From an uncultured Candidatus Saccharibacteria bacterium (GTDB lineage: Bacteria > Patescibacteriota > Minisyncoccia > UBA6257 > JAKLIH01), in contig CAZUBO010000003.1 in the NCBI GenBank assembly GCA_964618955.1, positions 5,250 through 69,249 on the forward strand: a stretch of DNA of 64,000 nucleotides, in the 5' to 3' direction. Positions 2,491 to 62,880 of the stretch are shown in pieces. The notes under the pieces were generated by a model. It saw only the letters and a program-made list of their open reading frames with translations. It did not search any database and was not told the DNA's origin. The position numbers were made by a program, and so were the translations under genes. Each line of letters begins with the position of its first letter. Position 1 is the first letter of the stretch.

Positions 2491-3672
2491 CTATAAATCA
2501 AAAAAATTAATATATTTTGAATTTGTTTTGTCTATATCTTTATTATAATAAATATAGTTTAAATCAATCTTCGGATACGTTTCGCTAAATTTCGAATAAT
2601 TTTTAGGAACTATTTTAGAAATTTTAAATTTGCTTTCGTAAGCTATTTTATTATCAACTACAAAGTCTACTTCATGCTTATCAGCTGTGCCTCAGTAATT
2701 AATAGTTATCTCGTCATTAGTTTCCAATAGCTTTTTATAAATCATATTTTCTAAAATTTCGCCTTTATCATCTCTATGTTCTAATTTTTCGAAATTATTT
2801 AACAGAACATTTCGCAATCCGAAATCATTAAAATATATTTTATTCATTTTGGTAAGTTCCTTACGTAAATTATTAAAATACGGACTTACTAAATTAATAT
2901 GAAAAGATTTCCTCATGATATATAGAAAGTTGTTTATAATTGTTTTAGAAACGTTCAAAGTATTAGCTAGCTCGTTAAGATTTATCGTTTTGCCTATTTG
3001 GTCAGCCAACAAGACAAAAAGCTTATAAAAAATCTCGTCTTTTTGAATCCCAGCATCATCAATATCTCTTTTAGTATAGGCATAGGCAATTTCATGCAAA
3101 ATCATTTTTTTCTCTTCAGTATCTTCAGTTAGGATTACTCTTGGATATCCACCATAAGTAACATATTCATTCATTAATTCTTTTTTGTCGTTTGTATTTA
3201 AATCTTTAATCTTTAATTTCTTAGCTAGCAAGAATTCTTCAAATGAAAATACATTAAGGAAAAAAATTCTTTTTCTTCCCGCTAAAGAATCTTTAAATTT
3301 TCTGTCGATATAAAAAGCTGAAGATCCAGTTACAATTAATTTAATTTTTCCTTTGTATTTGTCATAATTGAATTTAAGAAAATTCGAAGGATTCTTTAAA
3401 TATTGTATTTCATCTATAAAAACATATTTTTTATCCTTTTCCAATCCATCAATAACAGTTATTAAATTATCAGGATGTTCGTCCAATTTAGCTAACAGAG
3501 TAGGGTCTTCTAAACTAAAAAAGAAGCATTGTTTGCCTTCTTTTTTTAGTTTCTGATACATATGAAAAAGCATGGTTGTTTTGCCAGTTTGCCTAGGGCC
3601 AGTCATTAATGCTATCTCATCTGTATCCAAATAGTCTCAAACAGCATTGTATATTGTACGTTTTATAAACAT
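2491..3672 (-). CDS. AAA+ ATPase of the DUF4143/COG1373 type
   Basis: Walker A GPRQTGKTT. C-terminal Y-W-x5-EVDFVV becomes visible only when TGA 2692-2694 is read through. N-terminus extended to ATG 3672 across a second TGA. Stop is TAG at 2491. Confidence 0.8.
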
Positions 3673-3732
3673 AGTGATTAATTAGTATTTTTGTATAGTT
3701 ATATATTATCAGATAATTTGTACTTTGTCAAT

Positions 3733-3771
3733 GCCAAAAGTCCGTTTTATCGGATAAAACGGACTTTTGGC
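3733..3771. repeat. perfect 17-bp inverted repeat with 5-nt loop in a divergent promoter region
   Basis: gccaaaagtccgtttta / taaaacggacttttggc; no flanking T-run. Confidence 0.8.
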
Positions 3772-3905
3772 TTATCAAAAATCCTTTTTATCGAAATCAA
3801 ATATTTCAATATATTCTGTATAAATATTTGTTTTATAATCGTCTTTTGCATTATTTTCTTTTTTATGATATTATTTATATATAATTTAAATATTAAATAC
3901 AAAAT

Positions 3906-5180
3906 ATGATTAGTTCAAAACCACCTTCTGGTATGAGAGATACTCTCCCAAATGCCTTAAGACAAAAACAAAGAATTATAAATCAAATTAAACAAATCTT
4001 CGAGAAGTTTAATTATGACCCTATTGATACTCCAGTTCTGGAACGTATCGAGGTTTTAAATGGCAAATTTAGCAGTGAAGAAGAAAACGATAAATTAATT
4101 TTTCAAATTCAAAAACGTGGAGATAAATCTGAAGAAGGTTGTGACCTTGGTCTTCGCTATGATCTTACTGTTCCGCTATCGCGCTTCTATACTGAATATC
4201 AAAATGACTTACCTAAAGTTTTCAAACGCTATTGTATTGATAAAGTCTGACGAGCTGAACGAGCTGGCCGTGGTAGATATCGTGAATTCTATCAATGTGA
4301 TATTGATACTATCGGCTCATCTTCTAATCTAGTTGAAGCCGAGACTTTCTTAGCTTTAGCGCAAGCTTTAAAATGCTTTGATTTAAAGAATCTTTCTTTA
4401 AAAATCAGCTCTCGTGATTTCTTGAAGAAATTCTTAGAAAGTTTTGGCATTACTGATTTAAAAACTTTTATGACTTGTCTTGATAAGCAAGATAAGATTG
4501 GTCTTGATGGTGTTTTGGACGAATTAAAATCAAAAAGTTTTAACGAATCTACTTCTAAAAATATCTTAGATACTTTAAGTAATGATTCTGTTTTTGAATC
4601 TTATTGTAATTCTAAGCCAGAAATTATGGCTGTTATTAATCAAGTCAATAATATCATTGATTTAGTAAAGCCTTCCCTAACAGACATTAATGTATATTTT
4701 TGTAAGACCTTAGTAAGAGGGTTTGATTACTATACTAGCACTATTTTTGAATTCTATAGTCCTGAATTAGAATCCACCATTGCTGGTGGTGGCAGATATG
4801 ATAGCCTAACTAGTATTTTCAATGGTAACAAAACTCCTGCTTGTGGAGGTTCTATTGGTATTGAAAGAATCTTTGGGCTATTAGAAGGTAAAGAAATTAA
4901 AAATGAAAAACAATCAGTTTTAATTGCTTTGTTCGACGAATCTATGAAGTCAGATTGTTTAGAATTATTAAATTACTTAATTCAAAACAATATTAATTCC
5001 GAAATATATTTAGAAGCTGATAAATTGAGCGATCAAATTAAATACGCTTTATCAAAAGGTTGTAAATATTTAATTATCTATGGCCCTGACGAAAAGCAAA
5101 AGGGAATAGTAACAATTAAGAATTTAGAAACTAAAGAACAGCAAGAAGTATCCAGAGATGATTTAAAAGATTACGATTGA
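3906..5180 (+). CDS. hisS: histidyl-tRNA synthetase
   Basis: Class II motifs GMRD, GRGRYREFYQCDID, GGGRYD, GGSIGIERI. Track ORFs 3906-4250 and 4422-5180 share a frame and join through TGA 4248-4250, which aligns to an aromatic position. Confidence 0.9.
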
Positions 5181-5197
5181 TAATTTCAAAAATTGAA

Positions 5198-5224
5198 CTA
5201 GGCAGCCTTTTGGCTGCCTAGTTT
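5198..5224 (+). terminator. hisS intrinsic terminator
   Basis: 10-bp stem ctaggcagcc/ggctgcctag, tttt loop, then T-run. Confidence 0.75.
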
Positions 5225-5250
5225 GACTTTTAAATATTCTATGTTATCAT
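5223..5250 (+). promoter_or_regulatory. sigma-70-like promoter
   Basis: TTGACT, 16-nt spacer, TATCAT. No ORF lies downstream before the terminator at 5460-5490. Confidence 0.45.
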
Positions 5251-5256
5251 TGTATT

Positions 5257-5490
5257 AGTACGTTAAAAAAGTGCAAAGAACTTGATTATTCAAGTCAGGC
5301 ACAATGCATGCATATAGATGCTATTTTAACGCTTAAAGGATTTCCTGGCAGTTTAGTACCGGTGAGGGAAAAATGCTAGGGAAGCACAATATCGCTTCAA
5401 GAAACGAAGTGAATATTTATCCACTTCTACAAACACAAAATTTAATCTTCCTTGGAGTAAGCAACCTCGCTTATAGGTTGCTTTTCTCTT
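5257..5490 (+). ncRNA. candidate unclassified structured RNA (about 230 nt)
   Basis: Bounded by the 5223-5250 promoter and the aagcaacct/aggttgctt + T-run terminator (5460-5490). Locally GC-richer than its surroundings, several hairpins, no ORF with an RBS. Confidence 0.3.
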
Positions 5491-5497
5491 TATATTA

Positions 5498-5533
5498 ATA
5501 AAAACAGTGGCATATCGTCACGACATTCCACTG
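5498..5533 (-). terminator. recG intrinsic terminator
   Basis: Minus strand: cagtgg...ccactg stem followed by ttttt. Confidence 0.6.
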
Positions 5534-5625
5534 AGTTACTGAGTTTTTATGGTTTTTTGCTAAAAAGTTTAATAACCACCTCCTTTGTATTGAAAACTAA
5601 TACCAGTATAACACATAGTCATATA

Positions 5626-7782
5626 TTATTCCATATGTAGCTTTTCTACGAATTCTTTGTATCTTTTCAAAAACAAAGGATATTTTTTTAATTCTGAATC
5701 GGTAGCAAATATCAATTTTGCTTCTTCTTGAATATCTTTTAGTAATTTTGAATCTTTTAAGGCTGACATTGCTAAGTCCGGGAAGCCTGATTGATTCTTT
5801 CCAAACATCTCTCCTGGTCCTCTAAGTTTTAAATCAATTTCCGCTAATTTAAAACCATCATTACAATCTACCATAGCATTTAATCTCTCTCTGGTTGTTT
5901 TACTATTAGATTCAGTATACAAAAAACAATATGATTGGTAATTCCCCCTGCCAACTCTACCTCGGAATTGATGTAATTGCGCTAAACCAAATCATTCTGT
6001 TCCCATAATTAGCATTATCGTTGCATTAGGAATATCAACTCCAACTTCAATAACTGAAGTTGATACTAGCAGATTAGTTTCATTCCTACTGAATTTATTC
6101 ATTACCAATTCTTTTTCTTTTGGTTTCATTTTTCCATGAAGCATTTCAATATTGAATTCTGGAAAGATCTTCTTCATGGTCTCAACTTCTTTTTTAACAG
6201 CCTTTACTTCTGAATTTAACATCTGCTCAAATGAAAAAAGATTTTTGCCTTTAACTTCTCCTTCTTCTATAACTTCTTCAATTCTTGGACAAATTACAAA
6301 TACTTGTCTTCCGGATTTAATTTCTTTTCTAATAAATTCAAACATTGGTCCTTCTTTGGATTTTGTAATAATCTTTGTTATTATTTTCTTCCTATTCTTT
6401 GGCATTTCATCCAATATCGATAAATCCAAATCTCCATAGATTGATAAAGCTAAAGTTCTTGGGATTGGAGTTGCTGTCATTGAAAGGAAATGAGGAATTA
6501 ATTCATTTTGCTTACTTAATAATTCCTTTCTTTGTTTAATTCCAAATCGATGTTGTTCATCTATTATTACTAATCCTAATTTTGAAAAGTCAATATTCTT
6601 TTGAATCAAAGCATGGGTTCCAATAACTAATCATTCAGTACCTTCTGAAATACTTTTTAGTAAGTATTCTTTAGTGACTTTACCTTCAATAAATCCATCT
6701 TTAATTCTAACTCCTTCGCCAGTCATTAAGGCAACTTTAATCTCAAAACCTTCTAAGTATTTAATAAGGTTTTGGAAGTGTTGTTTGGCCAATACTTCAG
6801 TTGGGGCCATGAAGGCCACTTGATAGCCTTGAGTTACTGTTAAGAGGGATACAATAATTCCAATCATAGTTTTACCTGATCCAACATCGCCTTCTAGCAG
6901 TCTATTCATTGGTGATCCTTTTTCCATATCTTGCATTATCTCTCAGATAGCTTTCTTCTGTGAAGCGGTTAGAATAAAAGGCAAAGTACTTAAGAATTTC
7001 TTTACTAATTCAACATCCGCTTTTATCTTTGGGGCTTTGTTTTTCGCCATCTTGTTTTTAATATGCATTAAATGAAGCTGAGTTAAAAGCATTTCTTCAA
7101 AGATAAATCTTTTTCTGGCTAATTCGGCTTCCTGAATTGTATTCGGAAAATGTATTTTGTTTATTGCTTCTTTAAAACTCAAAAGTTTGTTTCTTTTTAA
7201 AGTATCATTTGACAATGAATCAACAAATTCATTTTGAAATGAATCTAATAGTCTTTTAATATATGTTCTTAGCATTTTGGAACTTACCCCACTAGTCTCT
7301 GGATATACTGGAATCAATCTTCCAGTATGTTTTAGTGTTGATATATCCACTTCTTCATTCTCATCGCCTTCTAGTATTTCAAAAGCTGGGCTTTGAAAAA
7401 CAAAATGTTTGCCTTTAATTTTTGGTTTGCCTGATACCGTAATTACCGTGCCTTCTTTCAATTGTTTAGAAATGAATGGTTGATTAAATCAAACAATATC
7501 CGCTTTACCGCTCTCGTCAATAATCTTGCCTTCAGTTAAAAGCATATGTCTGTGATATGTTCGATAACTTTTTAGAGTTCCAACTTTACCAATGATTGTG
7601 GAATTTTCACCTTCAACTAATTCACTGATAGATTTAATATTTGTAAAATCTTGATATCTAAAAGGGAAATGTCATAAAAGATCTTTTATGGTATTTATAT
7701 TCAATGATTTTAATTTGTCGTTGTAATATTTTCCAACTCCATAGAGATTAGAAATATTGTCTGTTAATTTTATATCATTCAT
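5626..7782 (-). CDS. recG: ATP-dependent DNA helicase RecG
   Basis: Five track fragments plus 7672-7881 share one frame (2157 nt) and join through in-frame TGAs. Motifs: GDVGSGKT, DEQHRFG, TATPIPRT, QLHQFRGRVGRG, and a wedge region with FPFRYQD and V-W-FNQPF. Confidence 0.9.
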
Positions 7783-7843
7783 TTTTCTTTTTTTATATAT
7801 TTGTATTTTATCAGATTTTTCAATTTTTGTCATTTTTTTTTGA

Positions 7844-17555: not shown

Positions 17556-18176
17556 ATGAATACAATCATGGACTTTGCAAATACATTTAAGAATACAGTC
17601 ATTATATCATTAAGTGACATAAACAAGGAGTTTCCTAAGTTTTATCGCCATCGTTTGACTGAATGACAAAATCAAGGATATATCAAGAAAATTATCCGTG
17701 GTTTTTATATTTTATCCGATTTAGATTTGAATGAATTCACGTCTTTTGCTATTGCTAATAGAATCTATGAACCATCATATATTTCTTTAGAATCAGCCTT
17801 AAGATACTATAACTTCATTCCTGAACAAACTTTTGCTGTGACTTCTATATCTACCCTCAAGACCAAGACATTCAATACTTGAATGGATAGATTTGTTTAT
17901 AGTAGTATTATTCCCAATCTATTCTTTGGTTATGAAATAGTTCATTTCAAGAATTTTGTTTTTAAGATTGCCAATCGAGAGAAGGCAATCTTAGATTATT
18001 TGTATTTTCATCGCCATTTTAAAACCGAAAAGGATATTGAAGAATTGAGATTCAATATTGAAGAGATCAAGAATACATTAAATACTGATAGATTAAAGGA
18101 CTATCTATCAAAGTACAATAACAAGTCTTTTGAAAAAATAATTAATAATTTTTTAAACTATATTTATCATGATTAG
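17556..18176 (+). CDS. AbiEi-like antitoxin/transcriptional regulator (copy 1)
   Basis: N-terminal wHTH-like RLTE-W-QNQGYIKKIIRGFYIL and AbiEi_4-like core YEPSYISLESALRYYNFIPE. Overlaps the downstream toxin gene by 8 nt. Confidence 0.75.
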
Positions 18177-18945
18177 TTTACAAGAGCTCATAAAAGAATA
18201 CCCTAGTAATCTGGCCAGTAGAAGCAGGGCTATTCTTAGAGAATATCTTCAATACAAGATATTAAATATCATTTTTAATTCAAAATTCTTATCTAAATTA
18301 TCCTTTATTGGCGATACTGCTCTTAGAATTGTCTATAATAATCAAAGATTCTCCGAAGATCTTAATTTTGATAATTTCGGCTTAACTATTGAAGAATTCG
18401 AAGAATTAATGAAGATAATAGCTAATAAACTGGAATTAGATGGCTATAATATAGAATACAATGTATCTGAAAAGGGTGCTTTTAGGGGCAACATCAAGTT
18501 TTTAAACCTTCTTAGTCAATTAGATTTAGCTGTTTGTGATACCGAAAAGCTTCTAATTCAAATCGATACCGCTCCTCATAGCTTCTCATATAAGCCAGAT
18601 CTAAAACTAATTCAAAAGTTTGATGTTCTTACAAAAATAAATGTAACGCCTATTAATATTCTTCTTTCTCAGAAGATTAGAGCTTTATTCGAACGTAATC
18701 GTGTTCTTGGTAGGGACGTCTATGATATCATTTTTCTGATATCAAAAACTAAACCCAATTATGATTATCTAAGAACAAAATTAAACATCAATAATAACAT
18801 TGAATTAAAAAATAAATTACAAGAGTTTTTTAAAACTATTGATTTATCAGAATTAGAAAAAGATATTTCAGGTTTTGTCTTTAATCAGGATGAGCTTAAA
18901 AAGCTATCTGTCTTTAAAGATAATATCTCTGAATTCGAATTCTAA
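18169..18945 (+). CDS. AbiEii-like nucleotidyltransferase toxin (copy 1, catalytic motifs degenerate)
   Basis: DUF1814-like. Has IGDTALR and RFSEDLNFD where copies 2 and 3 have GGTALR and RFSEDLDF. Confidence 0.75.
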   Translation: MISLQELIKEYPSNLASRSRAILREYLQYKILNIIFNSKFLSKLSFIGDTALRIVYNNQRFSEDLNFDNFGLTIEEFEELMKIIANKLELDGYNIEYNVSEKGAFRGNIKFLNLLSQLDLAVCDTEKLLIQIDTAPHSFSYKPDLKLIQKFDVLTKINVTPINILLSQKIRALFERNRVLGRDVYDIIFLISKTKPNYDYLRTKLNINNNIELKNKLQEFFKTIDLSELEKDISGFVFNQDELKKLSVFKDNISEFEF

Positions 18946-19067: not shown

Positions 19068-19913
19068 ATGAAAAATATTCTTGTTAGCGATCCCACAAGC
19101 AAATCATTTCAATCGCAATTAATTGCCTTATTGAAAGTCTTTTCTAATTTACAACCTAATGAACAAGTATGCTTTGATTTATCTAATATAAATTGAATAT
19201 GTCCAGTTTTATTATTGCCAATTTGTGCATATATTTATGAAACTAATAGTAAATATACATTACCCATAAATAATAGCGTTAAATCATACATTAATACTAT
19301 TAATTTTCCAAACGGTGTTCAAACTATATTAAATGATCAAAAATATCATACATATATTCCTATAGTTTTCTTGCAAAAAATCAACAGTGTCGATGGAAAA
19401 GAAAAATTAGAATCATGATTTCAAGAATTAGTCTATAATAATATGAAGATTGAGGGTAATAAGAGCGTTATTTTTGCTCCTATAACAGAATTAATCACAA
19501 ATATATTTGAACATAGTGGAAAAAACCATGGTTGAATCTTAGCTCAAATCTATCCGTTTCAGAATTATGTAGATGTTTGCATTGTTGATACTGGTAGAGG
19601 TATTAAACAATGCTACGAAGAGGAATTGAATATGATATTAAATAATCATTTAGAGGCATTTGAAATGCTTGCCAACCGAGAATCGTCAAAATCAAAGACA
19701 GAAAGAGGTTTTGGTGTATATATGTCCAAGGAATTAATCTGTAAAGCTTTGAACGGTAATTTTGTACTTTTATCTGGTAACGCCGGTTGAAATATCGATT
19801 TGGATATTAGTAATATGACCGAAATATCTAATTTCTATTGGCAAGGGGTTATTGCTAGCTATAGAATTAATTTTCCAAACAAGCAAGTTGACTTTTATAA
19901 TTTTTTAGAGTAA
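19068..19913 (+). CDS. GHKL-fold ATPase (RsbW/anti-sigma kinase-like) with about 130-aa N-terminal extension
   Basis: N box ITELITNIFEHS, G1 box VDTGRGI, G2 box ERGFGV. Four in-frame TGAs. Confidence 0.65.
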
Positions 19914-19935
19914 TATATAACTAATAACATACAAT

Positions 19936-20289
19936 ATGAAACATATCAAATTAGATCTGCAAAAAATAATAGCTCCAATTATAACCTCTAGAGATGCTAT
20001 TAATAAGCTAGAAGCTATGATTAAAAAATCTTGATTCAATGAAGTTGAATTAGATTTTTCTGATATTCAGTTTATTTCAAGATCAGCTACTCATGAATTA
20101 TTGCTTATGAAAGAAAGATTCTATAACAGAATGTTTTTAAAGAAAAGTATTATATTTTCTAATATGAATATTGATGTATCAGAAATGATACGCACAGTAG
20201 CTGCTAATAGAGTAGCTCCTAAAAAACATACCGATGAGCAAAAAAGTAAGATTGTGAGTGTTGAACAATTCTTATCCCAAAAGAGCTAG
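19936..20289 (+). CDS. STAS-like protein (DUF4325-type)
   Basis: 117 aa. VELDFSDIQFISRSATHELL matches the STAS/DUF4325 pattern. One in-frame TGA. Confidence 0.55.
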
Positions 20290-30039: not shown

Positions 30040-31263
30040 ATGCTAATTTCCGACTTAATTCAAGAAACTTATTCTGCTATCTTTGCTAACAAAGTCAGAT
30101 CTGGTCTTACTATTTTAGGTATTGTCATTGGTATTGGTTCAGTTGTAGCTATGATTTCTATTGGTCAAGGCGCCAAAGGTAGTATTGAAAAAAGTATTCA
30201 ATCTATTGGCTCTAATTTAATTATGGTCTATCCTGGTTCCCAACAAAAAGTTGGTACTCAGGTTAGAGGTGGTTTTGGTTCAGCTCAAACTTTAACCAAA
30301 GCTGATGCCGAGGCTATCGAAAAAGAAGTTTCTAATATTGAATATGTTGCTCCAGAAATATCTAAACGCTATCAAATAACTTCCAAGGGAACCAATAGTA
30401 ATGTTAGTGTAGTTGGTGTTACTTCAGTCTACAATACTGTAAAAAATATTGAACTTGATTCTGGATCTTTTGTATCCGATCAACAGCTGAATAGCTTATC
30501 AAAAGTTGCAGTTTTGGGACCAAATACCAATACAGAACTTTTCGGTGAAGGCATTAATTCTATTGGTAAAAAAATTCGTATCAATAGAATTGATTTTACC
30601 ATTATTGGTATTACCAAAGCCAAAGGAGGTACTGGCTTTGGTAGTCAAGATGATATTGTATATATTCCTTTGACTACTGCTCAAAAGTTTTTAACTGGTA
30701 AAGACTATGTTTCTACTATCAATGTTCAAACTATAGATCAAAAGTCAATGGCACAAGCCCAAGAAGATATTACTTCTTTGCTTCTAGCTCGTCATGATAT
30801 CTACAATGCCGATTTAGCTGATTTTACTGTATATAATCAAAATGATATTGTTGCCGCAGCTTCGTCAGTTACCAATACTTTTACCGTTCTTTTAGCTGCT
30901 ATAGCTAGTATTTCACTATTAGTTGGCGGCATTGGTATAATGAATATGATGCTAACTTCAGTTGCTGAGCGCACTAACGAAATTGGTCTTCGTAAATCCA
31001 TTGGTGCCAAAAAACAAGATATCAATTTGCAATTTTTGGCCGAATCAACCCTTCTAACAATTGTCGGTGGTATTCTTGGAATAATTTTTGGTTGAATTGC
31101 TGCTTTTTGTATGACTTACTTTGCTAAAATCACTACCAGTGTTTCCATTTCTTCAATTCTTCTAGCTTTTGGTGTATCTTTTGTCATTGGTCTTGCTTTT
31201 GGCTATTATCCTGCTTCTAGAGCTGCTAATTTAAATCCAATAGACGCTTTAAGAAGACAATAA
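30040..31263 (+). CDS. MacB/FtsX-type ABC permease
   Basis: MacB periplasmic domain plus FtsX motifs GGIGIMNMMLTSVAERTNEIGLRKSIGA. Extended past TGA 31093-31095; C-terminal YYPASRAANLNPIDALRRQ. Confidence 0.85.
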
Positions 31264-31746: not shown

Positions 31747-32050
31747 ATTCAAACTATAAAGCAAAAAGAGAGTCGTAAAAACGACTCTCTATATAAATTC
31801 TAATTAACAATACCTTCTATGCTATTTACGAAGAACCATACGGAGCCCCACATATATAAGGATTTACTTGTTATATATATATTATAGTAAATAATTTATT
31901 AAAGTCAATAGTATTCTTAAATATTCTTTGTTGGAAAATATTAATCTTTTTAATATTTAAATATTAAACTATTTGACTTTTTTTGTGAATTATTATATAT
32001 TAAACATGATAGCAAAAGTCAATTATAAATAATTTTAATTTATAATTATT

Positions 32051-32881
32051 ATGCGCAGAATAAAATCTCACACAATGCAAAAACTGGAATATATTCAAAA
32101 ATATATTAGTGCTTATACAGTTGCAACAAAAAAGTTGCCCTTCAAATATTATATTGATGCTTTTGCTGGAAGTGGATTATGTATTTTGTGCGATGAAAAA
32201 TGTAAATCACGAGGGAAAAATAAATGTAGCAAATGCAGTCGAGGAAAGATAGTAAGCGGTTCTGCTATAATTGCATGTAATATCTTAAATCGTTTTCAGA
32301 GATATATTTTTATAGATCTAGATAAGAATTGTATCAAAGAATTAAAAAATGCTATTAAGTCGTTCGATGAACCATTACAAAATATTATTAGAATAGAACA
32401 AGGCGATGCCAATGTAATATTAAAAGATTTCTACAAAAATGCGTCTAGATTTAACGGCTATTTAGTATTACTTGATCCTGAGGGTCCAGAACTTAAATGA
32501 AAAACTATTGAAGCGTTAGCCAAAATACCTAAGATAGATCTTCTTATACTATATCCTTATGACATGGCAATCGTAAGATTGACAAAAGAGTACATAGAAT
32601 TATTAGATGAATTTTATGGCGATAAGGCTTGGATAGATATCTATAGGGATAAAAATAATTGCACGGCAGAGAAAAGAAAGACAGCGTTGTTAAATTTTTA
32701 TATCTCTAATTTAAATAAGTTAGGTCTTGGGCAGGTTGTTTATAAACAAATCCGCAAAAATATTAGAGATGGACATCCTCTTTATCATTTGATATTAGCC
32801 AGTCGTAATTCGGTTGCCAAAAATATAATGAATGATATTTTTGGCAAGGAATTAGACGGTCAAGAAAAATTAAAATTTTAA
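32051..32881 (+). CDS. TcmP-like (three-Cys-motif partner protein) with methyltransferase-like fold and a zinc-ribbon insert
   Basis: HTMQKLEYIQKYI ... YYIDAFAGSG (SAM motif I-like), insert C-x2-C-x14-C-x2-C, then LLDPEGPE. Track ORFs 32051-32500 and 32564-32881 join through TGA 32498. Confidence 0.55.
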
Positions 32882-32892
32882 AGAATAATATT

Positions 32893-33738
32893 ATGAAAAA
32901 AATAATGCGAAAAACATTATTGTATAAAACTAAGGTTGAATATGGTGATTGAACAATCAACCATATTTTAGGTTGCTCTCATGGCTGTAATTTTCCTTGC
33001 TATGCAATGCTTATGGCCAAAAGATTCGGCTGAATTAAGAGCTATAACGACTGAAGAAAACCGCAAATAGTAGAAAACGCTTTAGAATTATTAGAAAAAG
33101 AAATACCATTATACAAAGATAAAATAAAATTTGTGCATTTATGCTTTATGACAGACCCATTCATGTATGATGATAAAACAAAGAAATTAATTCCTGAAAT
33201 TAAAGAATTAACTACAAAAATAATAGAAAGATTGAATAAAGATAAAATAAAAGTTACTACTTTGACAAAAGGTCTCTATCCTAAAGAGATTGCATCAAAT
33301 AAGAAGCTTTTAAAATCTAATGAATATGGTATTACCCTGGTGTCTTTAAACAAAAACTTCAAAGATAAATTTGAACCATTCTCTTCTCCTTATAGAGCAA
33401 GAATTAATTCTTTAAAAAAATTAGCGGATGCTGGATTAAATACTTGGGTAAGTATGGAACCATATCCAATACCAGAATACGATAATGATGCTGAAAACAT
33501 AGAAAAGGTATTAAATGAAATTAAATTTGTTAAAAAGATAGTTTTTGGAAAGTTAAATTACAAAAAATTAACTATGGAAAAATCATTAGATTCTAATAGC
33601 TGAGCTAATAGCGATGATTTTTACAGAGCTATGTCTCAAAAGGTTATTGATTTTTGTAAAAAGAACAAAATACAATATCATATTAAAATTGGTACCCCAT
33701 TGAGCACGGAAAAGCCAAACAAGCTTTTTAGTAAGTAA
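32893..33738 (+). CDS. radical-SAM-like protein (SplB/COG1533-like) with non-canonical CX3CX3C motif
   Basis: INHILGCSHGCNFPCYAM, followed by a TIM-barrel-like alternation of strands and helices. Four in-frame TGAs. Starts 12 nt after the TcmP-like stop. Confidence 0.55.
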
Positions 33739-33813: not shown

Positions 33814-35352
33814 ATGAAATACTGAAAACCAACATTTAAAAACCTTTTCAAAACACTAGTATCTTGCTTGTTAATTTTTCTAACAAGCAGTATTGGTGTT
33901 TTTGCTTTTGATGCTAATTCTAAAATCAATATCTATAAAACCAGCGATAGTGAATATCGTGATCAAATCAATGTTAGCAATATCAAAAACACTAACTATA
34001 TTAATTTTTATGTAGATCAATATTGGTGAAGTAAACAAACCTTTACCGACCAAGATAAAGTCTCTAATTTTGCTATTGCTCTTGGCTCTGAATTTGAATA
34101 CAATATCTATCCAAAATTAGTCAAAGTTTTGCCTAATATTACTTCTTGACTTTCCTATAATCAAAAATTAAATATTATTCTAACTCCAATGAATGGTGGT
34201 ATTCAAGGGTATATCCGCCCAGAAGATTTCAATAGTAAAACTCAAAACAATACTTCTAACAGTGGTACTATTGTTTATCTTAATGCTAATAATATTTTGA
34301 ACCCTAGCATATCCAACAATATTTTGTTTTCTTTCTTCGCTCATGAATTTATGCATATCATTACTTTTCGAGAAAAAAATATCTATTTTAACGTATCAGA
34401 AGATACTTGATTGGAAGAATTGCGTAGCGAGTATTTAGCTAATTATCTTGGCTACAATAAGTCTGCTGATTCCTATTTAAATTTTCGTTTGCAAAACGGT
34501 GTTAGTTTAACGGATATTAATTTAATCAATTGAAATAATGCTAGCAATAGTTATTCTTTAATTAATCTTTTTAGTATTTATTTGGTCCAAAGATATTCTT
34601 CAGATATTATCTTTAGTACTCTAGCCTCTAAAGCTACTGGCATTGATTCCATCAATAATTATCTTTCTCAACATGGCTTTAAAGAAAGATTCAAAGATAT
34701 TTATCAGGATTGAGTTATTGCTAATATTATAAATAATTGCGAAACAAATACAAACTATTGCTATAAAGATATTGATATTCAAATTAATATTCCTGGTACT
34801 AGTTTCTATTTACCAATCAATAATGATAGTGTGCTTTCGATTAGTGATTCTTTAACAAACTACCAAACTAAGTATCAGAAGATTGTTGGCGGCTCTGACA
34901 ATTTAGAATTAACTCTTGAAAATACCAAAAACAATATTTATCAAAAGATTCCATATATTTTGGTTGATAAAAACAATCAAAAATCTTTAAGCTTTTTTAG
35001 TTTTAATACAACTACCGAACAACGAATTGTTATCAAAAATTATTCCAAATCTTATGCTAATATTATTATTATTCCAATGTTCGCCGATAAGGCTGGAAAT
35101 AATTCCCAGATCTTTAAATGAAATATTAATAGTACTAAAAGTTTTCATGTAATTCCTGGTACCAAACCAACTACTACTAAATCAGTTGCTACAACTAAGT
35201 CAAGAAGTGTGACTACCACAACTACTAATCCTCAGTTTGGTACGGCAACTCCTATAGTTATCAATATTAATGCTCCAACTAAACCATCTTGATTCTCAAG
35301 GATTACGTTTAGTATCGTCTTCTTCCTTCAAAGAATTTTTCAGAAAAAATAG
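33814..35352 (+). CDS. secreted putative zinc metallopeptidase (HEXXH)
   Basis: Signal/anchor, FAHEFMHII (HEXXH), Thr-rich tail and a C-terminal hydrophobic segment. About eight in-frame TGAs join four track fragments. Confidence 0.5.
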
Positions 35353-35443: not shown

Positions 35444-36049
35444 ATGACCAATAAACTGAACTGGCAACTTGTGGCCGAAAAACTCCAAGATAAGAAAATA
35501 ACCTTGTTTACACCAAGTATCTTTTTGGGTTTATTTAATGCATCTGAAAGCGCCAGCAAAAGCCTTTTAAACACATATACCAAAAAGGGTTTTTTCATAA
35601 AACTAAAAAATGGCTTCTATATCTCAAAGACGTCTAGCCATAATGATTTCGAGATAGCTAATAAGATATATAAGCCTTCCTATGTTTCTTTTGAAACAGC
35701 TTTGTCTTATCATAATATACTCCCTGAAACAGTATATTCTATTACTTCAGCCACTACTAAGGCTAGCAGAAGCTATATAATATTAAATAAATATTTTACT
35801 TATCATAAGATGAAAAAAGAATTGTTTTTTGGTTATGATGTTCTTAATATCAATGGTCAAACAATATGAATGGCTGATAAAGAAAAGGCTTTATTAGATT
35901 ATGTTTATTTTGTCACTATGAAAAAGAAACCTGACAATGATAGATTAAATATCAAGGACATATCGGTAATTAAAATAAAAAAATATTTAAAACAATACAA
36001 TAATCCTTTATTGGAATCTAAAATTAAGAAATTATTAATAAATAAATAA
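35444..36049 (+). CDS. AbiEi-like antitoxin (copy 2)
   Basis: YKPSYVSFETALSYHNILPE core. TAATG overlap with the downstream toxin gene. Confidence 0.7.
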
Positions 36050-36771
36050 TGATTAATCCAGACACTATTCAATTATTAGCTACAAAATTACAAACTCGAG
36101 ATATTAATATAGCTAGGGAATACATTCAAAATCTTTTTCTTTCTTTTTTCTATGAGCAAAAAGAATCTCGAAATATCTTATTCAAGGGTGGTACAGCCTT
36201 GAGAATTGTATTTCAAAGCCCCCGTTTCTCTGAAGATCTAGATTTTTCAACCGACAAGTTCTTTTCTTTAAAAGAAATTGAACAAATAATTATTAAAACC
36301 ATAAGTAATATTGAGAATTTGGGTATTAAAACAGATATTAAGGAATCCAAAGCTACTACTGGTGGTTATTTAGGAATTATTAATTTTAAATTCCTTGAAT
36401 ATAATATAGATATTTATTTAGAAATTTCTTTTAGGAAAAAAGTCGGAATAAAAGGGGAAGCTGTTGTTATCAATAATTCTTTTACTCCTTCCTATGTATT
36501 AATTATCTTATCTCAAGATCAGATGATTGCCGAAAAAATTCAAGCCACACTTACCAGACAAAAACCTAGGGATTTTTTTGATATCTACTTTCTTTTACGG
36601 GGAAACATGATTACTGCAGTTAATAAAGCATCTCTTAAATCAATCAGAGATACTATTAAAAAAACAAAAGTTAACTTTAGTAATGAACTTAAAACATTTC
36701 TTCCAGTTCGCCAACATCTAGTTATCAAAGACTTCAAAAACAACTTGTTAAAAGAAATGGATAGAATTTAA
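36049..36771 (+). CDS. AbiEii-like nucleotidyltransferase toxin (copy 2)
   Basis: FKGGTALRIVFQSPRFSEDLDFS; C-terminal KPRDFFDIYFL. Confidence 0.8.
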   Translation: MINPDTIQLLATKLQTRDINIAREYIQNLFLSFFYEQKESRNILFKGGTALRIVFQSPRFSEDLDFSTDKFFSLKEIEQIIIKTISNIENLGIKTDIKESKATTGGYLGIINFKFLEYNIDIYLEISFRKKVGIKGEAVVINNSFTPSYVLIILSQDQMIAEKIQATLTRQKPRDFFDIYFLLRGNMITAVNKASLKSIRDTIKKTKVNFSNELKTFLPVRQHLVIKDFKNNLLKEMDRI

Positions 36772-36903: not shown

Positions 36904-37524
36904 ATGGTAAAAATACTAGATTTTATCAAAAAATTAAGCAAAATCATCGTCTTTTCTAAAAAGGATTTAGAGAAGATGTTTTCAAATATCTATCCAGCCA
37001 GATTAACCGAATGACAAAACAAGGGTTATATCAAGAAGATAACTAATAATTTTTATATTATTTCTGATTTAGAGATTAACGAAAACTCAATGTTTTTAAT
37101 TGCTAACAAGATTTATGAGCCAGCCTACATTTCCGTAGAAACGGCATTGAGTTATTATGGAATTATTCCTGAACAAGTTTTTAGTATCGTATCTTTAACA
37201 ACTAATAGAAGCAAAACCTTTGACACTCCTTTAGGGAAGTTTTTTTATAAAACTATTCCTTTTGATCTTTTTTTCGGTTATGAGACTATAAAATACAAAG
37301 ATTTTAATTTTAAGATTGCTGATAAAGAAAAGGCTATTCTAGACTACATGTATTTACATCGACATCTTAAAACAATAGTTGATTTTGAATCTGTAAGATT
37401 TAATATTTCTGATCTTAAGTCTAGTATTAACAAAGATAAGATCTTGTTCTATTTGTCTAAGTATAGAAGCAAGGCCTTTGTTAAAACCATTAATAAATTA
37501 CTAAAATATATTTATCATGCTTAG
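36904..37524 (+). CDS. AbiEi-like antitoxin (copy 3, close paralog of copy 1)
   Basis: RLTE-W-QNKGYIKKI and YEPAYISVETALSYYGIIPE. Same length (206 aa) and same 8-nt overlap as copy 1. Confidence 0.75.
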
Positions 37525-38293
37525 TCTAGATTCTATTGTAAAAAATTACCCTGAAAATCTAAGAGCTTTTAAGAAGAATATAATTAGAGAATATTTACAA
37601 TACAAGATATTGTATCATATCTTTAATTCTCCTTTTTCTAATAAATTATCTTTTATTGGCGGTACCGCTCTAAGAATTGCCTATGATAATCAAAGATTCT
37701 CTGAAGATCTTGATTTTGATAATTTTGGTCTATCCATTACTGATTTTGAAAGTTTAATTGACTTTGTACAGAAGAAGTTAACTCAAGAAGGTTTTGATAT
37801 TGAATTTAAAGTTACTAATAAGGGTGCTTTTAGGGCTGATATTAAATTCAAATCCATTTTAGAATTCTACGGTATTGCTGTTATGGAAACCGAAAAATTA
37901 CTTATCCAAGTTGATACCGCTCCTCATAATTTTGTTTATCAGGCTCAAGAGCATATACTTAACAAGTTCGATGTCTTTTCAATAATCTTAACAACCCCAC
38001 CAGATATTCTTTTGTCTCAGAAAATCAGAGCTTTTTTTGAAAGAAAAAGAACATTAGGTAGAGATATTTTTGATATAATATTCCTTTCGTCCAAAACCAA
38101 ACCCAACTATGATTATTTAAAAGATAAATTGAACATTGACAATAGTAAAGATCTCAAATCTAGAATTTCCAAATTTGTATCAACTCTTGATATTAAAACT
38201 CTTAAACAAGATTTAAGATATATGCTTTTTAACGAAAATAGTGTTAACCAAATTGATACTTTCGTTGAACATATTGATAAACTTAACTTCTAA
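37517..38293 (+). CDS. AbiEii-like nucleotidyltransferase toxin (copy 3, motifs intact)
   Basis: FIGGTALRIAYDNQRFSEDLDFD; long identical runs with copy 1. Confidence 0.8.
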   Translation: MLSLDSIVKNYPENLRAFKKNIIREYLQYKILYHIFNSPFSNKLSFIGGTALRIAYDNQRFSEDLDFDNFGLSITDFESLIDFVQKKLTQEGFDIEFKVTNKGAFRADIKFKSILEFYGIAVMETEKLLIQVDTAPHNFVYQAQEHILNKFDVFSIILTTPPDILLSQKIRAFFERKRTLGRDIFDIIFLSSKTKPNYDYLKDKLNIDNSKDLKSRISKFVSTLDIKTLKQDLRYMLFNENSVNQIDTFVEHIDKLNF

Positions 38294-62310: not shown

Positions 62311-62880
62311 ATGCCTAATTGTAAAAAAATTTGTGTTTTTATCGACGCATCTAATGTTTGAGAGGTTCAAAAGACTAAAGGAAGATTTTTTGACTATGAA
62401 AAATTGCAAAAATTTCTTATAAAAAACTTTAGTGCCTTAGAATTAAAGGTTTTTTATTATACTGCTTATCCTAAAGAAGGAACTAGAAAATATAATTTAG
62501 ACGGAAAACATAAGTTTTATACATTTCTTAACAAAGGGTTAGGATTTATTGTTCGTAAAAAAGAATTAAAAAGAATACACGTAGTCACTGGTGATGGACA
62601 GTCAATTGAATAAAAAGGTAATATGGACGTAGAGATAACGATAGATGCTATGTATTATAGTTCACAATATGACGAAGCAATATTTTTCTCTGGTGACTCT
62701 GATTTCATGGCTCTGGTAACTCATTTAAGGTTGCAAGGTAAAAAAGTATATATTTTTTCGTCAAAAAACAATGTCTCGGAGGAACTAAGGACCGGCGCAG
62801 ATGGATATTACAATATTTTAGATAATAATATTGGAAATATATGGGGTAGAGAGCTTAAACACAGGCCAAATAAATATTAA
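62311..62880 (+). pseudogene. NYN-domain (LabA/DUF88-like) gene interrupted by an in-frame TAA
   Basis: VFIDASNV ... then TAA at 62611-62613 directly before KGNMDVEITIDAM ... FFSGDSDF ... GKKVYIFS. Both halves share one frame. Confidence 0.55.

Follow-up and report, generated by a model that had tools for sequence, protein, structure and literature searches.

The subject of this analysis is a pair of adjacent genes at positions 32051–33738 of a 64,000-nucleotide stretch of DNA from an uncultured Candidatus Saccharibacteria bacterium (contig CAZUBO010000003.1 of assembly GCA_964618955.1; the whole stretch is called the window in what follows). [quoted passage not shown] The reading put forward here, to which a probability of roughly 45% is attached, is that the two genes specify one self-contained two-subunit enzyme that modifies bases in nucleic acid, most likely in DNA, and that belongs to the sphere of defence and restriction-modification. 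The components of this reading differ in firmness. That the TcmP and the radical SAM protein act as one enzyme is very probable, because of their fusion in some genomes, their tight linkage and their co-inheritance. A nucleic-acid substrate is likely, since the nearest characterised relative of each subunit acts on a nucleic-acid base. DNA is somewhat preferred to RNA as that substrate, and a defence-related role is favoured over one in general repair, because of the restriction-modification contexts in which the pair is found and its mobile, patchy distribution. The substrate, chemistry and biological role discussed below are ones that we infer. The features of the two genes are as follows.

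32051–32881, + strand: gene 1, TcmP (TIGR04474), 276 aa, with a predicted RlmJ-like methyltransferase fold
32069–32104, + strand: N-terminal helix H7-T-x-x-K11-x6-Y18 of gene 1; K11 is invariant in the family alignment
32150–32176, + strand: SAM-binding motif I of gene 1, YIDAFAGSG (residues 34–42); D36, F38, G40 and G42 are invariant
32180–32236, + strand: five-Cys insertion of gene 1, C44-x2-C47-x3-C51-x7-C59-x2-C62, a putative zinc ribbon; the predicted local distance difference test score (pLDDT) is ~60 here
32468–32491, + strand: motif IV-like LLDPEGPE of gene 1 (residues 140–147); D142-P143 is invariant
32893–33738, + strand: gene 2, radical SAM protein (PF04055), 281 aa (277 aa from ATG 32905), with a predicted spore photoproduct lyase-like fold
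32974–33000, + strand: CX3CX3C motif of gene 2, C28-SHG-C32-NFP-C36, presumed ligands of a [4Fe-4S] cluster; the Cys residues are invariant in homologues

The reading frames of both genes depend on the genetic code. Under translation table 11, the list of open reading frames (ORFs) for the region contains only fragments (32051–32500, 32564–32881 and 33133–33603), and it is when TGA is taken as a sense codon that the two full genes appear, gene 1 containing a single in-frame TGA and gene 2 four of them. The resulting sizes are those given by an earlier first-pass annotation of this DNA, made by a model from the letters alone, in which the recoding itself is absent. The five TGA codons are located as follows.

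32498–32500, + strand: TGA for Trp150 of gene 1; W150 is an invariant column of the TcmP alignment
32950–32952, + strand: TGA for Trp20 of gene 2; W in close homologues (EYGNWTINH)
33031–33033, + strand: TGA for Trp47 of gene 2; W in the closest homologues (KFGWVKDY)
33052–33054, + strand: TGA for Trp54 of gene 2; W54 is an invariant column of the gene 2 family alignment
33601–33603, + strand: TGA for Trp237 of gene 2; W in the closest homologues (SQTWKNN)

All five align with conserved Trp residues of homologues, and two database entries, P0121 and P0001 (P-numbers denote proteins and L-numbers loci, both being labels of this analysis), are identical to the two proteins and have Trp at the TGA positions. 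In the histidyl-tRNA synthetase (HisRS) gene at 3906–5183, a TGA at 4248–4250 likewise coincides with an invariant Trp. Over the whole window the code-4 ORFs contain 111 TGA and 32 TGG codons, and coverage by long ORFs rises from 33.7 kb to 56.8 kb once TGA is counted as sense. Because the TGAs sit on conserved Trp both in the cassette and in HisRS, because ORF coverage rises, and because TGA outnumbers TGG, it can be stated that this genome uses code 4, in which TGA encodes Trp. Reading UGA as Gly (code 25) was considered and rejected: every TGA position checked corresponds to a conserved Trp, and Trp would fall to 0.17% of codons. No tRNA-Trp(UCA) was found within the window. A preprint of May 2026 (10.64898/2026.05.24.727570) describes, as the first such case, a change of UGA to Trp in the Patescibacteriota (class Minisyncoccia). 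Five of the seven Trp codons of the cassette are TGA, in line with the genome-wide ratio, and because of this equality the cassette appears to be resident in this genome; its expression elsewhere requires that the five TGA codons be recoded to TGG. The same code is met in neighbouring genes, for instance in the MacB-like permease gene at 30040–31263, which also has an in-frame TGA (31096–31098). The closest relatives of the HisRS (72–96% identity) include one named Candidatus Paceibacterota, and some truncated HisRS database entries of 274–284 aa (P0388–P0392) may be code-11 miscalls of such genomes.

The evidence that the two proteins belong together comes from a comparison of loci. The gene 2 family comprises 3,849 database proteins at E ≤ 0.001, and at E ≤ 1e-30 it forms 178 clusters at 50% identity, while a collection of ~185,000 species genomes contains at least 590 stretches related to gene 2. 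Its distribution is patchy (Patescibacteria, DPANN archaea, Omnitrophota and prophage-like contigs, at 45–70% identity), with a mean column identity of 61% between bacterial and archaeal members; among GenBank phages there is one near-full-length homologue, in an unannotated record, together with weak PA0069-like matches. Pairing was surveyed at 80 genome loci and 65 viral-contig loci with gene 2 relatives, using hidden Markov models (HMMs) built from the survey's own hits; the genome count refers to the 68 non-redundant loci with at least 900 nt of upstream sequence, and long TcmP partners were scored with the curated TIGR04474 model. The two proteins are encoded by a single ORF of ~590 aa at 13 of the 68 genome loci, TcmP lies directly upstream on the same strand at 39 and downstream at one; with the partners recognised at 7 of the 15 loci that seemed at first to lack TcmP, the count of loci where it is adjacent or fused comes to 60 of 68. 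Against TIGR04474 the 375-aa upstream protein of L041 scores 100 bits and the 645-aa fusion of L061 scores 177 bits, both above the cut-off; the upstream proteins of L026, L046, L073 and L085 cluster with the long partner of L041, and the partner in L024 is a weak match to the home-built TcmP model (E 2.4e-5). On viral contigs TcmP is directly upstream at 56 of 65 loci, and its long form is found at four more (L098, L125, L145 and L146, that of L125 scoring 97 bits on TIGR04474), giving 60 of 65. Fusions occur in two architectures, one joining a short TcmP to the radical SAM domain (~590 aa; L007, L010, L012–L016 and L018–L022) and the other a long TcmP (634–681 aa; L025, L061 and P0223), and where the genes are separate, overlaps or short spacers between them are frequent. 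The first-pass annotation had proposed conservation of the pair as neighbours in other genomes as a check on its own suggestion, and these counts bear it out.

Turning to the individual proteins, gene 1 scores 150.3 bits against NCBIfam TIGR04474 (cut-off 53), its residues 7–267 covering profile positions 2–262 of 263; it matches PADLOC PDC-M41A over nearly its full length (E 6.5e-39) and has no match in Pfam. As befits a TcmP it lies beside a three-Cys-motif protein, namely gene 2, which follows 11 nt downstream and contains C28, C32 and C36. In an alignment of 41 relatives the invariant positions are K11, D36-x-F-x-G-x-G42, G70, F82, N121, D142-P143, W150 and T152, and in the same alignment the five-Cys insertion is confined to the closest relatives, being missing from more distant TcmPs. 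The assignment as TcmP had already been made in the first-pass annotation, and the motifs on which it was based (the N-terminal helix, YIDAFAGSG and LLDPEGPE) are all present; the cysteine insert is also there, but as CxxC-x11-CxxC with a fifth Cys rather than as the CxxC-x14-CxxC that had been described. The AlphaFold2 model (pLDDT 88.9, predicted template modelling score 0.88) has E. coli RlmJ, the 23S rRNA m6A2030 methyltransferase (DUF519; m6A being N6-methyladenine), as its best Foldseek match in the PDB (E 1.9e-9, TM 0.54), followed by Trm1, Hen1, TYW4 and MnmM, all of them RNA-modifying methyltransferases, so that the check for a methyltransferase fold suggested at the outset gave a positive outcome. 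A sequence search against the PDB produced only a marginal RsmD-like match (2fhp, E 0.014).

The comparison with RlmJ is informative on both sides. In a weak hhalign match (E 0.001, probability 21%), YIDAFAGSG pairs with YLDTHAGAG, GSAIIA with GSPLIA and LLDPEG with LIDPPY, which brings motif I and the Asp-Pro of motif IV into register and puts D142 of TcmP opposite the catalytic D164 of RlmJ. Both proteins have an insertion at the same place after motif I, the five-Cys insertion of gene 1 occupying the position of the RlmJ helical subdomain, and a Lys in the N-terminal helix is conserved in each. RlmJ depends on its N-terminal Lys18 (motif X) and on Asp164, and in its active site it is similar to DNA m6A methyltransferases (PMC3814359); K11 and D142 of TcmP would fit this pattern, although we infer the equivalence of K11 and Lys18 from position and not from alignment. 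In contrast, identity is only ~14%, the DPPY of RlmJ corresponds to DPEG in gene 1 with just D-P in common, the insertion is Cys-rich rather than helical, and RlmJ is a housekeeping enzyme that acts alone. The DPEG of gene 1 is itself a minority form, as DP[FY][GA] is the usual sequence in TcmPs that pair with this radical SAM family. Taken as a predicted structure, gene 1 looks like a Rossmann-fold, SAM-binding protein of the RlmJ or N6-adenine-methyltransferase type.

Gene 2 (277 aa if the NCBI-style start, ATG 32905, is used) matches the Pfam model Radical_SAM, PF04055, over residues 22–203 with 38.2 bits (gathering threshold 29.5), in agreement with its initial description as radical SAM-like. 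Its other profile matches are to DUF5131 (PF07505; 25.6 bits, below the threshold of 28.9, residues 12–93 corresponding to profile positions 1–85 of 243), to PADLOC PDC-M41B (a weak match, E 8.3e-8, 29.9 bits, profile positions 3–92 of 241) and, far below their cut-offs, to the SplB-like models NF033668 (PA0069; 44.7 against 360) and NF038135 (Rv2578c; 49.2 against 430). In PHROGs only families of unknown function were matched (phrog_13321, E 8.7e-24). The AlphaFold2 model (pLDDT 90.6) has alternating strands and helices, and its top Foldseek match in the PDB is spore photoproduct lyase (SPL), 4fhc (E 7.9e-7, TMq 0.66, rmsd 5.0), with weaker matches to SuiB, MqnE, SkfB, lipoyl synthase and viperins; the top matches are all radical SAM enzymes, and the predicted fold is the partial TIM barrel of that superfamily. 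A sequence search against the PDB gave chance matches only, and Foldseek against viral models gave generic radical SAM matches only.

The most distinctive feature of gene 2 is its cysteine motif, which the first-pass annotation had rightly described as one residue longer than the canonical CX3CX2C. The three Cys residues are invariant in 40 of 40 aligned homologues, and the CX3CX3C spacing is found in all 113 close matches that have an N-terminus and at all 148 loci. Among 93 complete representatives of the family at 50% identity, 76 have the form GC-x-HGC-x-[FY]-P-CYA (CX3CX3C) and the remaining 17, which are more distant, the canonical CX3CX2C (e.g. CSHGCNYCYA). The odd spacing thus represents a single Pro that was inserted into the canonical motif and has become fixed across a large subfamily, and the conservation of a motif only one Pro away from the canonical one supports C28, C32 and C36 as the probable cluster ligands. 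We know of no characterised enzyme with CX3CX3C, although no systematic search for one was made. Other radical SAM enzymes with non-canonical motifs are similar to the extent that their Cys spacing departs from CX3CX2C while fold and family membership are kept; what sets the gene 2 variant apart is that it consists of a lone Pro after an aromatic residue and is fixed in a large subfamily. The two relatives with a canonical motif that were looked at (L157:4001–4804 and L156:1458–2285) have no TcmP, which hints, from these two cases, at a link between the Pro insertion and partnership with TcmP. Each is part of a small element that also encodes integrases, Zn-finger proteins and a primase-like AAA_25 protein. 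A further variant on the architecture is P0228 (1002 aa), in which the radical SAM domain is C-terminal (747–995) and the 740 residues before it are without a match to TcmP or to any model of Pfam or NCBIfam.

As to where gene 2 belongs among known families, its initial likening to SplB/COG1533 holds for structure, SPL being the closest solved fold (TM 0.66) and the weak matches to the PA0069 and Rv2578c models pointing the same way, but the protein is not one of COG1533/PA0069 proper: identity to SPL is ~12%, the SplB-like cut-offs are missed by a wide margin, and gene 2 has no link here to sporulation. SPL, for its part, acts without a TcmP-like partner, and its cysteine motif is the canonical CX3CX2C. 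Judged by its sequence, gene 2 is instead a sister family of DUF5131, the usual partner of TcmP, and not DUF5131 itself. The two families share an N-terminal hEW/YxDxTxNxxxGC...CYA region and SD.F and S.EP motifs; the pairs share the gene order of TcmP followed by the Cys-motif protein (as in L153 and L155) and the occurrence of both kinds near restriction-modification genes, and gene 1 is a bona fide TcmP that matches PDC-M41A of the TcmP–DUF5131 pairs PDC-M41/PDC-M30. They differ in that gene 2 falls below the DUF5131 cut-off with only the first 85 profile positions matched, is ~40 residues longer, passes Pfam Radical_SAM, and has GC-x3-C-x3-CYA where DUF5131 proteins beside more distant TcmPs have GC-x6-C-x2-CYA (GCTKLSPGCAHCYA in L153 and GCSKKSTGCQHCYA in L155); gene 1 in turn has the five-Cys insertion, and DPEG instead of DP[FY][GA]. 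At RadicalSAM.org both SPL and DUF5131 are placed in megacluster 5.

The case for a role in defence comes mainly from gene neighbourhoods, for which ORFs within four positions of the pair were clustered across 143 loci. Restriction-modification genes are present within four ORFs at 37 of these (26%, a raw count that is not scaled to background), in several independent layouts. A type III Mod methylase is found at 18 loci, directly downstream at 15 of them, and a type III Res helicase-nuclease two genes downstream at 11; a type IIG restriction-methylase (1,200–1,300 aa), itself preceded by an SNF2 helicase, lies directly upstream of fused forms, which it often overlaps; and small N4/N6 methylases and Dam also recur. 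On viral contigs, repressor, ImmA/IrrE and recombinase genes are nearby. PADLOC PDC-M41A and PDC-M30A match TcmP proteins of the family. The PDC systems were identified by way of “guilt by embedding”; in the core defensome of a 2026 survey the majority of them await validation (PMC12988326). The suggestion of a nucleic-acid modification or defence role, already made in the first-pass annotation, is thus backed by repeated embedding in restriction-modification operons, and the pair amounts to a self-contained cassette for which such embedding is frequent though not universal.

A number of individual layouts deserve mention in their own right. Fused genes lie directly downstream of a type IIG gene in L012, L013, L015, L018 (5086–6852), L025 and L061, with an SNF2 helicase upstream in L013, L015 and L018 and a PLD-SNF2 protein downstream in L025; this layout of fused TcmP–radical SAM protein, type IIG enzyme and SNF2 helicase resembles an Hma or DISARM-type system with an embedded module. 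The four-gene order TcmP, radical SAM, type III Mod, Res is seen on viral contigs (L117, L123, L132–L135, L139, L140, L143, L145 and L146), near prophage repressor and ImmA/IrrE genes. Where TcmP is lacking, the radical SAM gene may lie beside ordinary DNA methylases: in L006 (an archaeal metagenome-assembled genome, ~2500–7800) its neighbours are Dam, an N6_N4 methylase and a DndB-like gene, and in L063 (1354–2193) an N4/N6 methylase overlaps its start.

If these strands are combined, a mechanism can be proposed in which TcmP would recognise a target nucleotide, flip it out and possibly methylate it. The radical SAM subunit would bind a [4Fe-4S] cluster through C28, C32 and C36 and cleave a second SAM to a 5'-deoxyadenosyl radical, which would take a hydrogen atom from the target base or one beside it; a base would thereby be modified, or an existing modification reversed. 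In the present genome, where UGA is Trp, the cassette stands by itself behind a promoter-like site of its own and adjoins AbiE toxin-antitoxin modules. A more far-reaching version, which is quite unlikely, is that the pair carries out undescribed DNA base chemistry, TcmP installing or recognising an amino-methylated base (e.g. m6A) and the radical SAM protein hypermodifying or erasing it by taking hydrogen either from the base itself or from its methyl group. The pair would then be a portable add-on, found widely across Patescibacteria, DPANN archaea and prophages, that alters self/foreign discrimination by restriction-modification systems, and the Pro-expanded CX3CX3C motif would be a functional, novel mode of binding the radical SAM cluster.

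All this said, several observations weigh against an enzyme for DNA modification in defence. The best structural relatives of TcmP modify RNA, not DNA, and the hhalign match to RlmJ is weak in any case. Whether the gene 1 protein transfers methyl groups is uncertain, because its DPEG lacks the aromatic residue found both in most TcmPs (DP[FY][GA]) and in true m6A methylases (DPPY), and CX3CX3C is a cluster-binding spacing only by presumption. The genomic context is not uniformly supportive either. About three quarters of the loci have no restriction-modification neighbour, and a small number of ancestral events may account for the type III group, whose radical SAM proteins share a median of 73% identity. 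The closest Patescibacteria relatives (L002, L042, L047, L077 and L080) have no adjoining methylase or nuclease; their neighbours are unrelated, several of them apparently housekeeping, and there is no common third gene. In this window too no methylase or nuclease adjoins the cassette, none being present among the neighbours searched for families and none being obvious in ORF translations over 17–45 kb. Finally, the statement in the first-pass annotation that the pairing has no experimentally assigned function is accurate in that no functional study of any member was found in the searchable literature, nor any paper on PDC-M41, but incomplete, as PADLOC lists TcmP with DUF5131-like proteins as the candidates PDC-M41 and PDC-M30.

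The strongest of the competing explanations, though still an unlikely one, is reversal of DNA damage, with the radical SAM subunit splitting or reversing a lesion or crosslink and TcmP serving as a catalytically altered subunit for lesion recognition and base flipping rather than as a methyltransferase. That SPL is the closest solved fold to gene 2 fits this well, as does the DPEG that gene 1 has in place of an aromatic motif IV, and the gene context of other SplB-like families ties them to SOS and repair genes as well as to NreA, the archaeal partner of PCNA (PMC3765255, PMC4929162); in L047 the pair is followed by a 250-aa ORF whose N-terminus looks, by eye only, like exonuclease III. However, one would not expect a general repair enzyme to have a patchy, mobile distribution or to occur in prophage-like contigs beside repressor and integrase modules and in restriction-modification operons; across the 143 loci SOS, polymerase or ligase genes were not seen as recurrent neighbours, and the SAM-binding residues of TcmP are conserved.

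Modification of rRNA or tRNA, in which an RlmJ-like TcmP would act on structured RNA and the radical SAM protein perform a second step as in tRNA hypermodification, is decidedly doubtful. Its sporadic occurrence, in at least 590 stretches among ~185,000 species genomes, its presence on viral contigs, its embedding in restriction-modification operons and the lack of a conserved neighbourhood among close relatives all argue the other way, even though the top structural matches of TcmP are without exception RNA methyltransferases and the unusually high identity (55–70%) between radical SAM proteins of bacteria and archaea would suit a universally conserved substrate. Some of the Patescibacteria neighbours also look like housekeeping genes (as judged from N-terminal sequences), and one DUF5131 pair adjoins def-fmt-rsmB.

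It is very improbable that the product is a small molecule, whether a modified nucleotide that blocks phage, as with viperin, or a modified peptide or cofactor. Radical SAM defence based on nucleotides is known (prokaryotic viperins, Ophion), and viperins, maturases of ribosomally synthesised and post-translationally modified peptides (SuiB, SkfB) and MqnE are among the fold matches of gene 2, but these matches are weaker than that to SPL, the nearest relatives of TcmP act on bases within polymers, and no gene for a precursor peptide, a transporter or nucleotide metabolism is conserved nearby. Last, the notion that these are broken pseudogenes, with real stops at the in-frame TGAs and nothing functional made, draws on their fragmentation under table 11 and is rejected as next to impossible by the conserved Trp at all five TGAs and in HisRS, by the gain in ORF coverage and the 111:32 excess of TGA, and by UGA-to-Trp recoding having already been reported in the Patescibacteriota class Minisyncoccia.

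It remains to describe the surroundings of the cassette. The two genes are separated by 11 nt (the stop codon of gene 1 ends at 32881 and the ATG of gene 2 is at 32893), not by 12 as first given. A MacAB-like efflux operon lies upstream and AbiEii genes lie downstream (36049–36771 and 37517–38293), with a third AbiEii gene at 18169–18945, so that the original placement between an efflux operon and AbiE modules was right; the additional description as an AT-rich accessory stretch finds no support, as the region, with GC contents of 30.1% in gene 1 and 27.7% in gene 2, does not stand out in composition from the window as a whole (30.0%). Two further features lie between the efflux operon and gene 1.

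31767–31790, no strand assigned: GC-rich, terminator-like hairpin closing the upstream efflux operon, from a terminator scan (10-bp stem with 5 G-C pairs)
31973–32001, + strand: promoter-like site TTGACT-17-TATATT, ~50 nt 5' of gene 1, agreeing with the consensus at 10 of 12 positions (a consensus match only)

Repeat searches over 29–39 kb for the borders of a mobile element gave nothing convincing. The AbiEii genes belong to three AbiEi/AbiEii-like toxin-antitoxin pairs (17556–18945, 35444–36771 and 36904–38293), in all of which the AbiEii domain is confirmed by Pfam and of which the first and third are close paralogues. The gene that comes right after the cassette (33814–35352) contains 8 TGA codons and encodes a protein of 512 aa with no Pfam match, which has an N-terminal signal-like segment, the sequence HEFMH (HExxH) and a Thr-rich tail. 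Elsewhere in the window, a 281-aa HATPase_c protein followed by a 117-aa ORF (19068–20289) adjoins an AbiE pair and may be a switch of the serine-kinase/antagonist type, and a stop or frameshift seems to have divided one NYN/LabA-like gene into the adjacent short ORFs at 62311–62613 and 62623–62880.

In assessing what these results add, it should be remembered that TcmP with a three-Cys partner is already known as a named kind of pair and a listed defence candidate: TcmP and Cys-motif partners are named in annotation pipelines and appear in lists of defence candidates with no function assigned. What is new here is a distinct, SPL-like partner family with a fixed CX3CX3C motif, a TcmP with a Cys-rich insert and DPEG, and their presence in a code-4 Patescibacteria genome. 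An m6A-methyltransferase-like and an SPL-like radical SAM subunit, fusions of the two, and placement in type III and type IIG operons together supply a testable model for such pairs, while CX3CX3C, being one Pro away from the canonical motif, offers a clean test case for variability of the radical SAM cluster loop. If the pair does make or remove a DNA base modification, this would be new chemistry for the epigenetics of bacteria and archaea and for phage defence, and it would matter most for Patescibacteria and DPANN, small-genome lineages in which the family is common.

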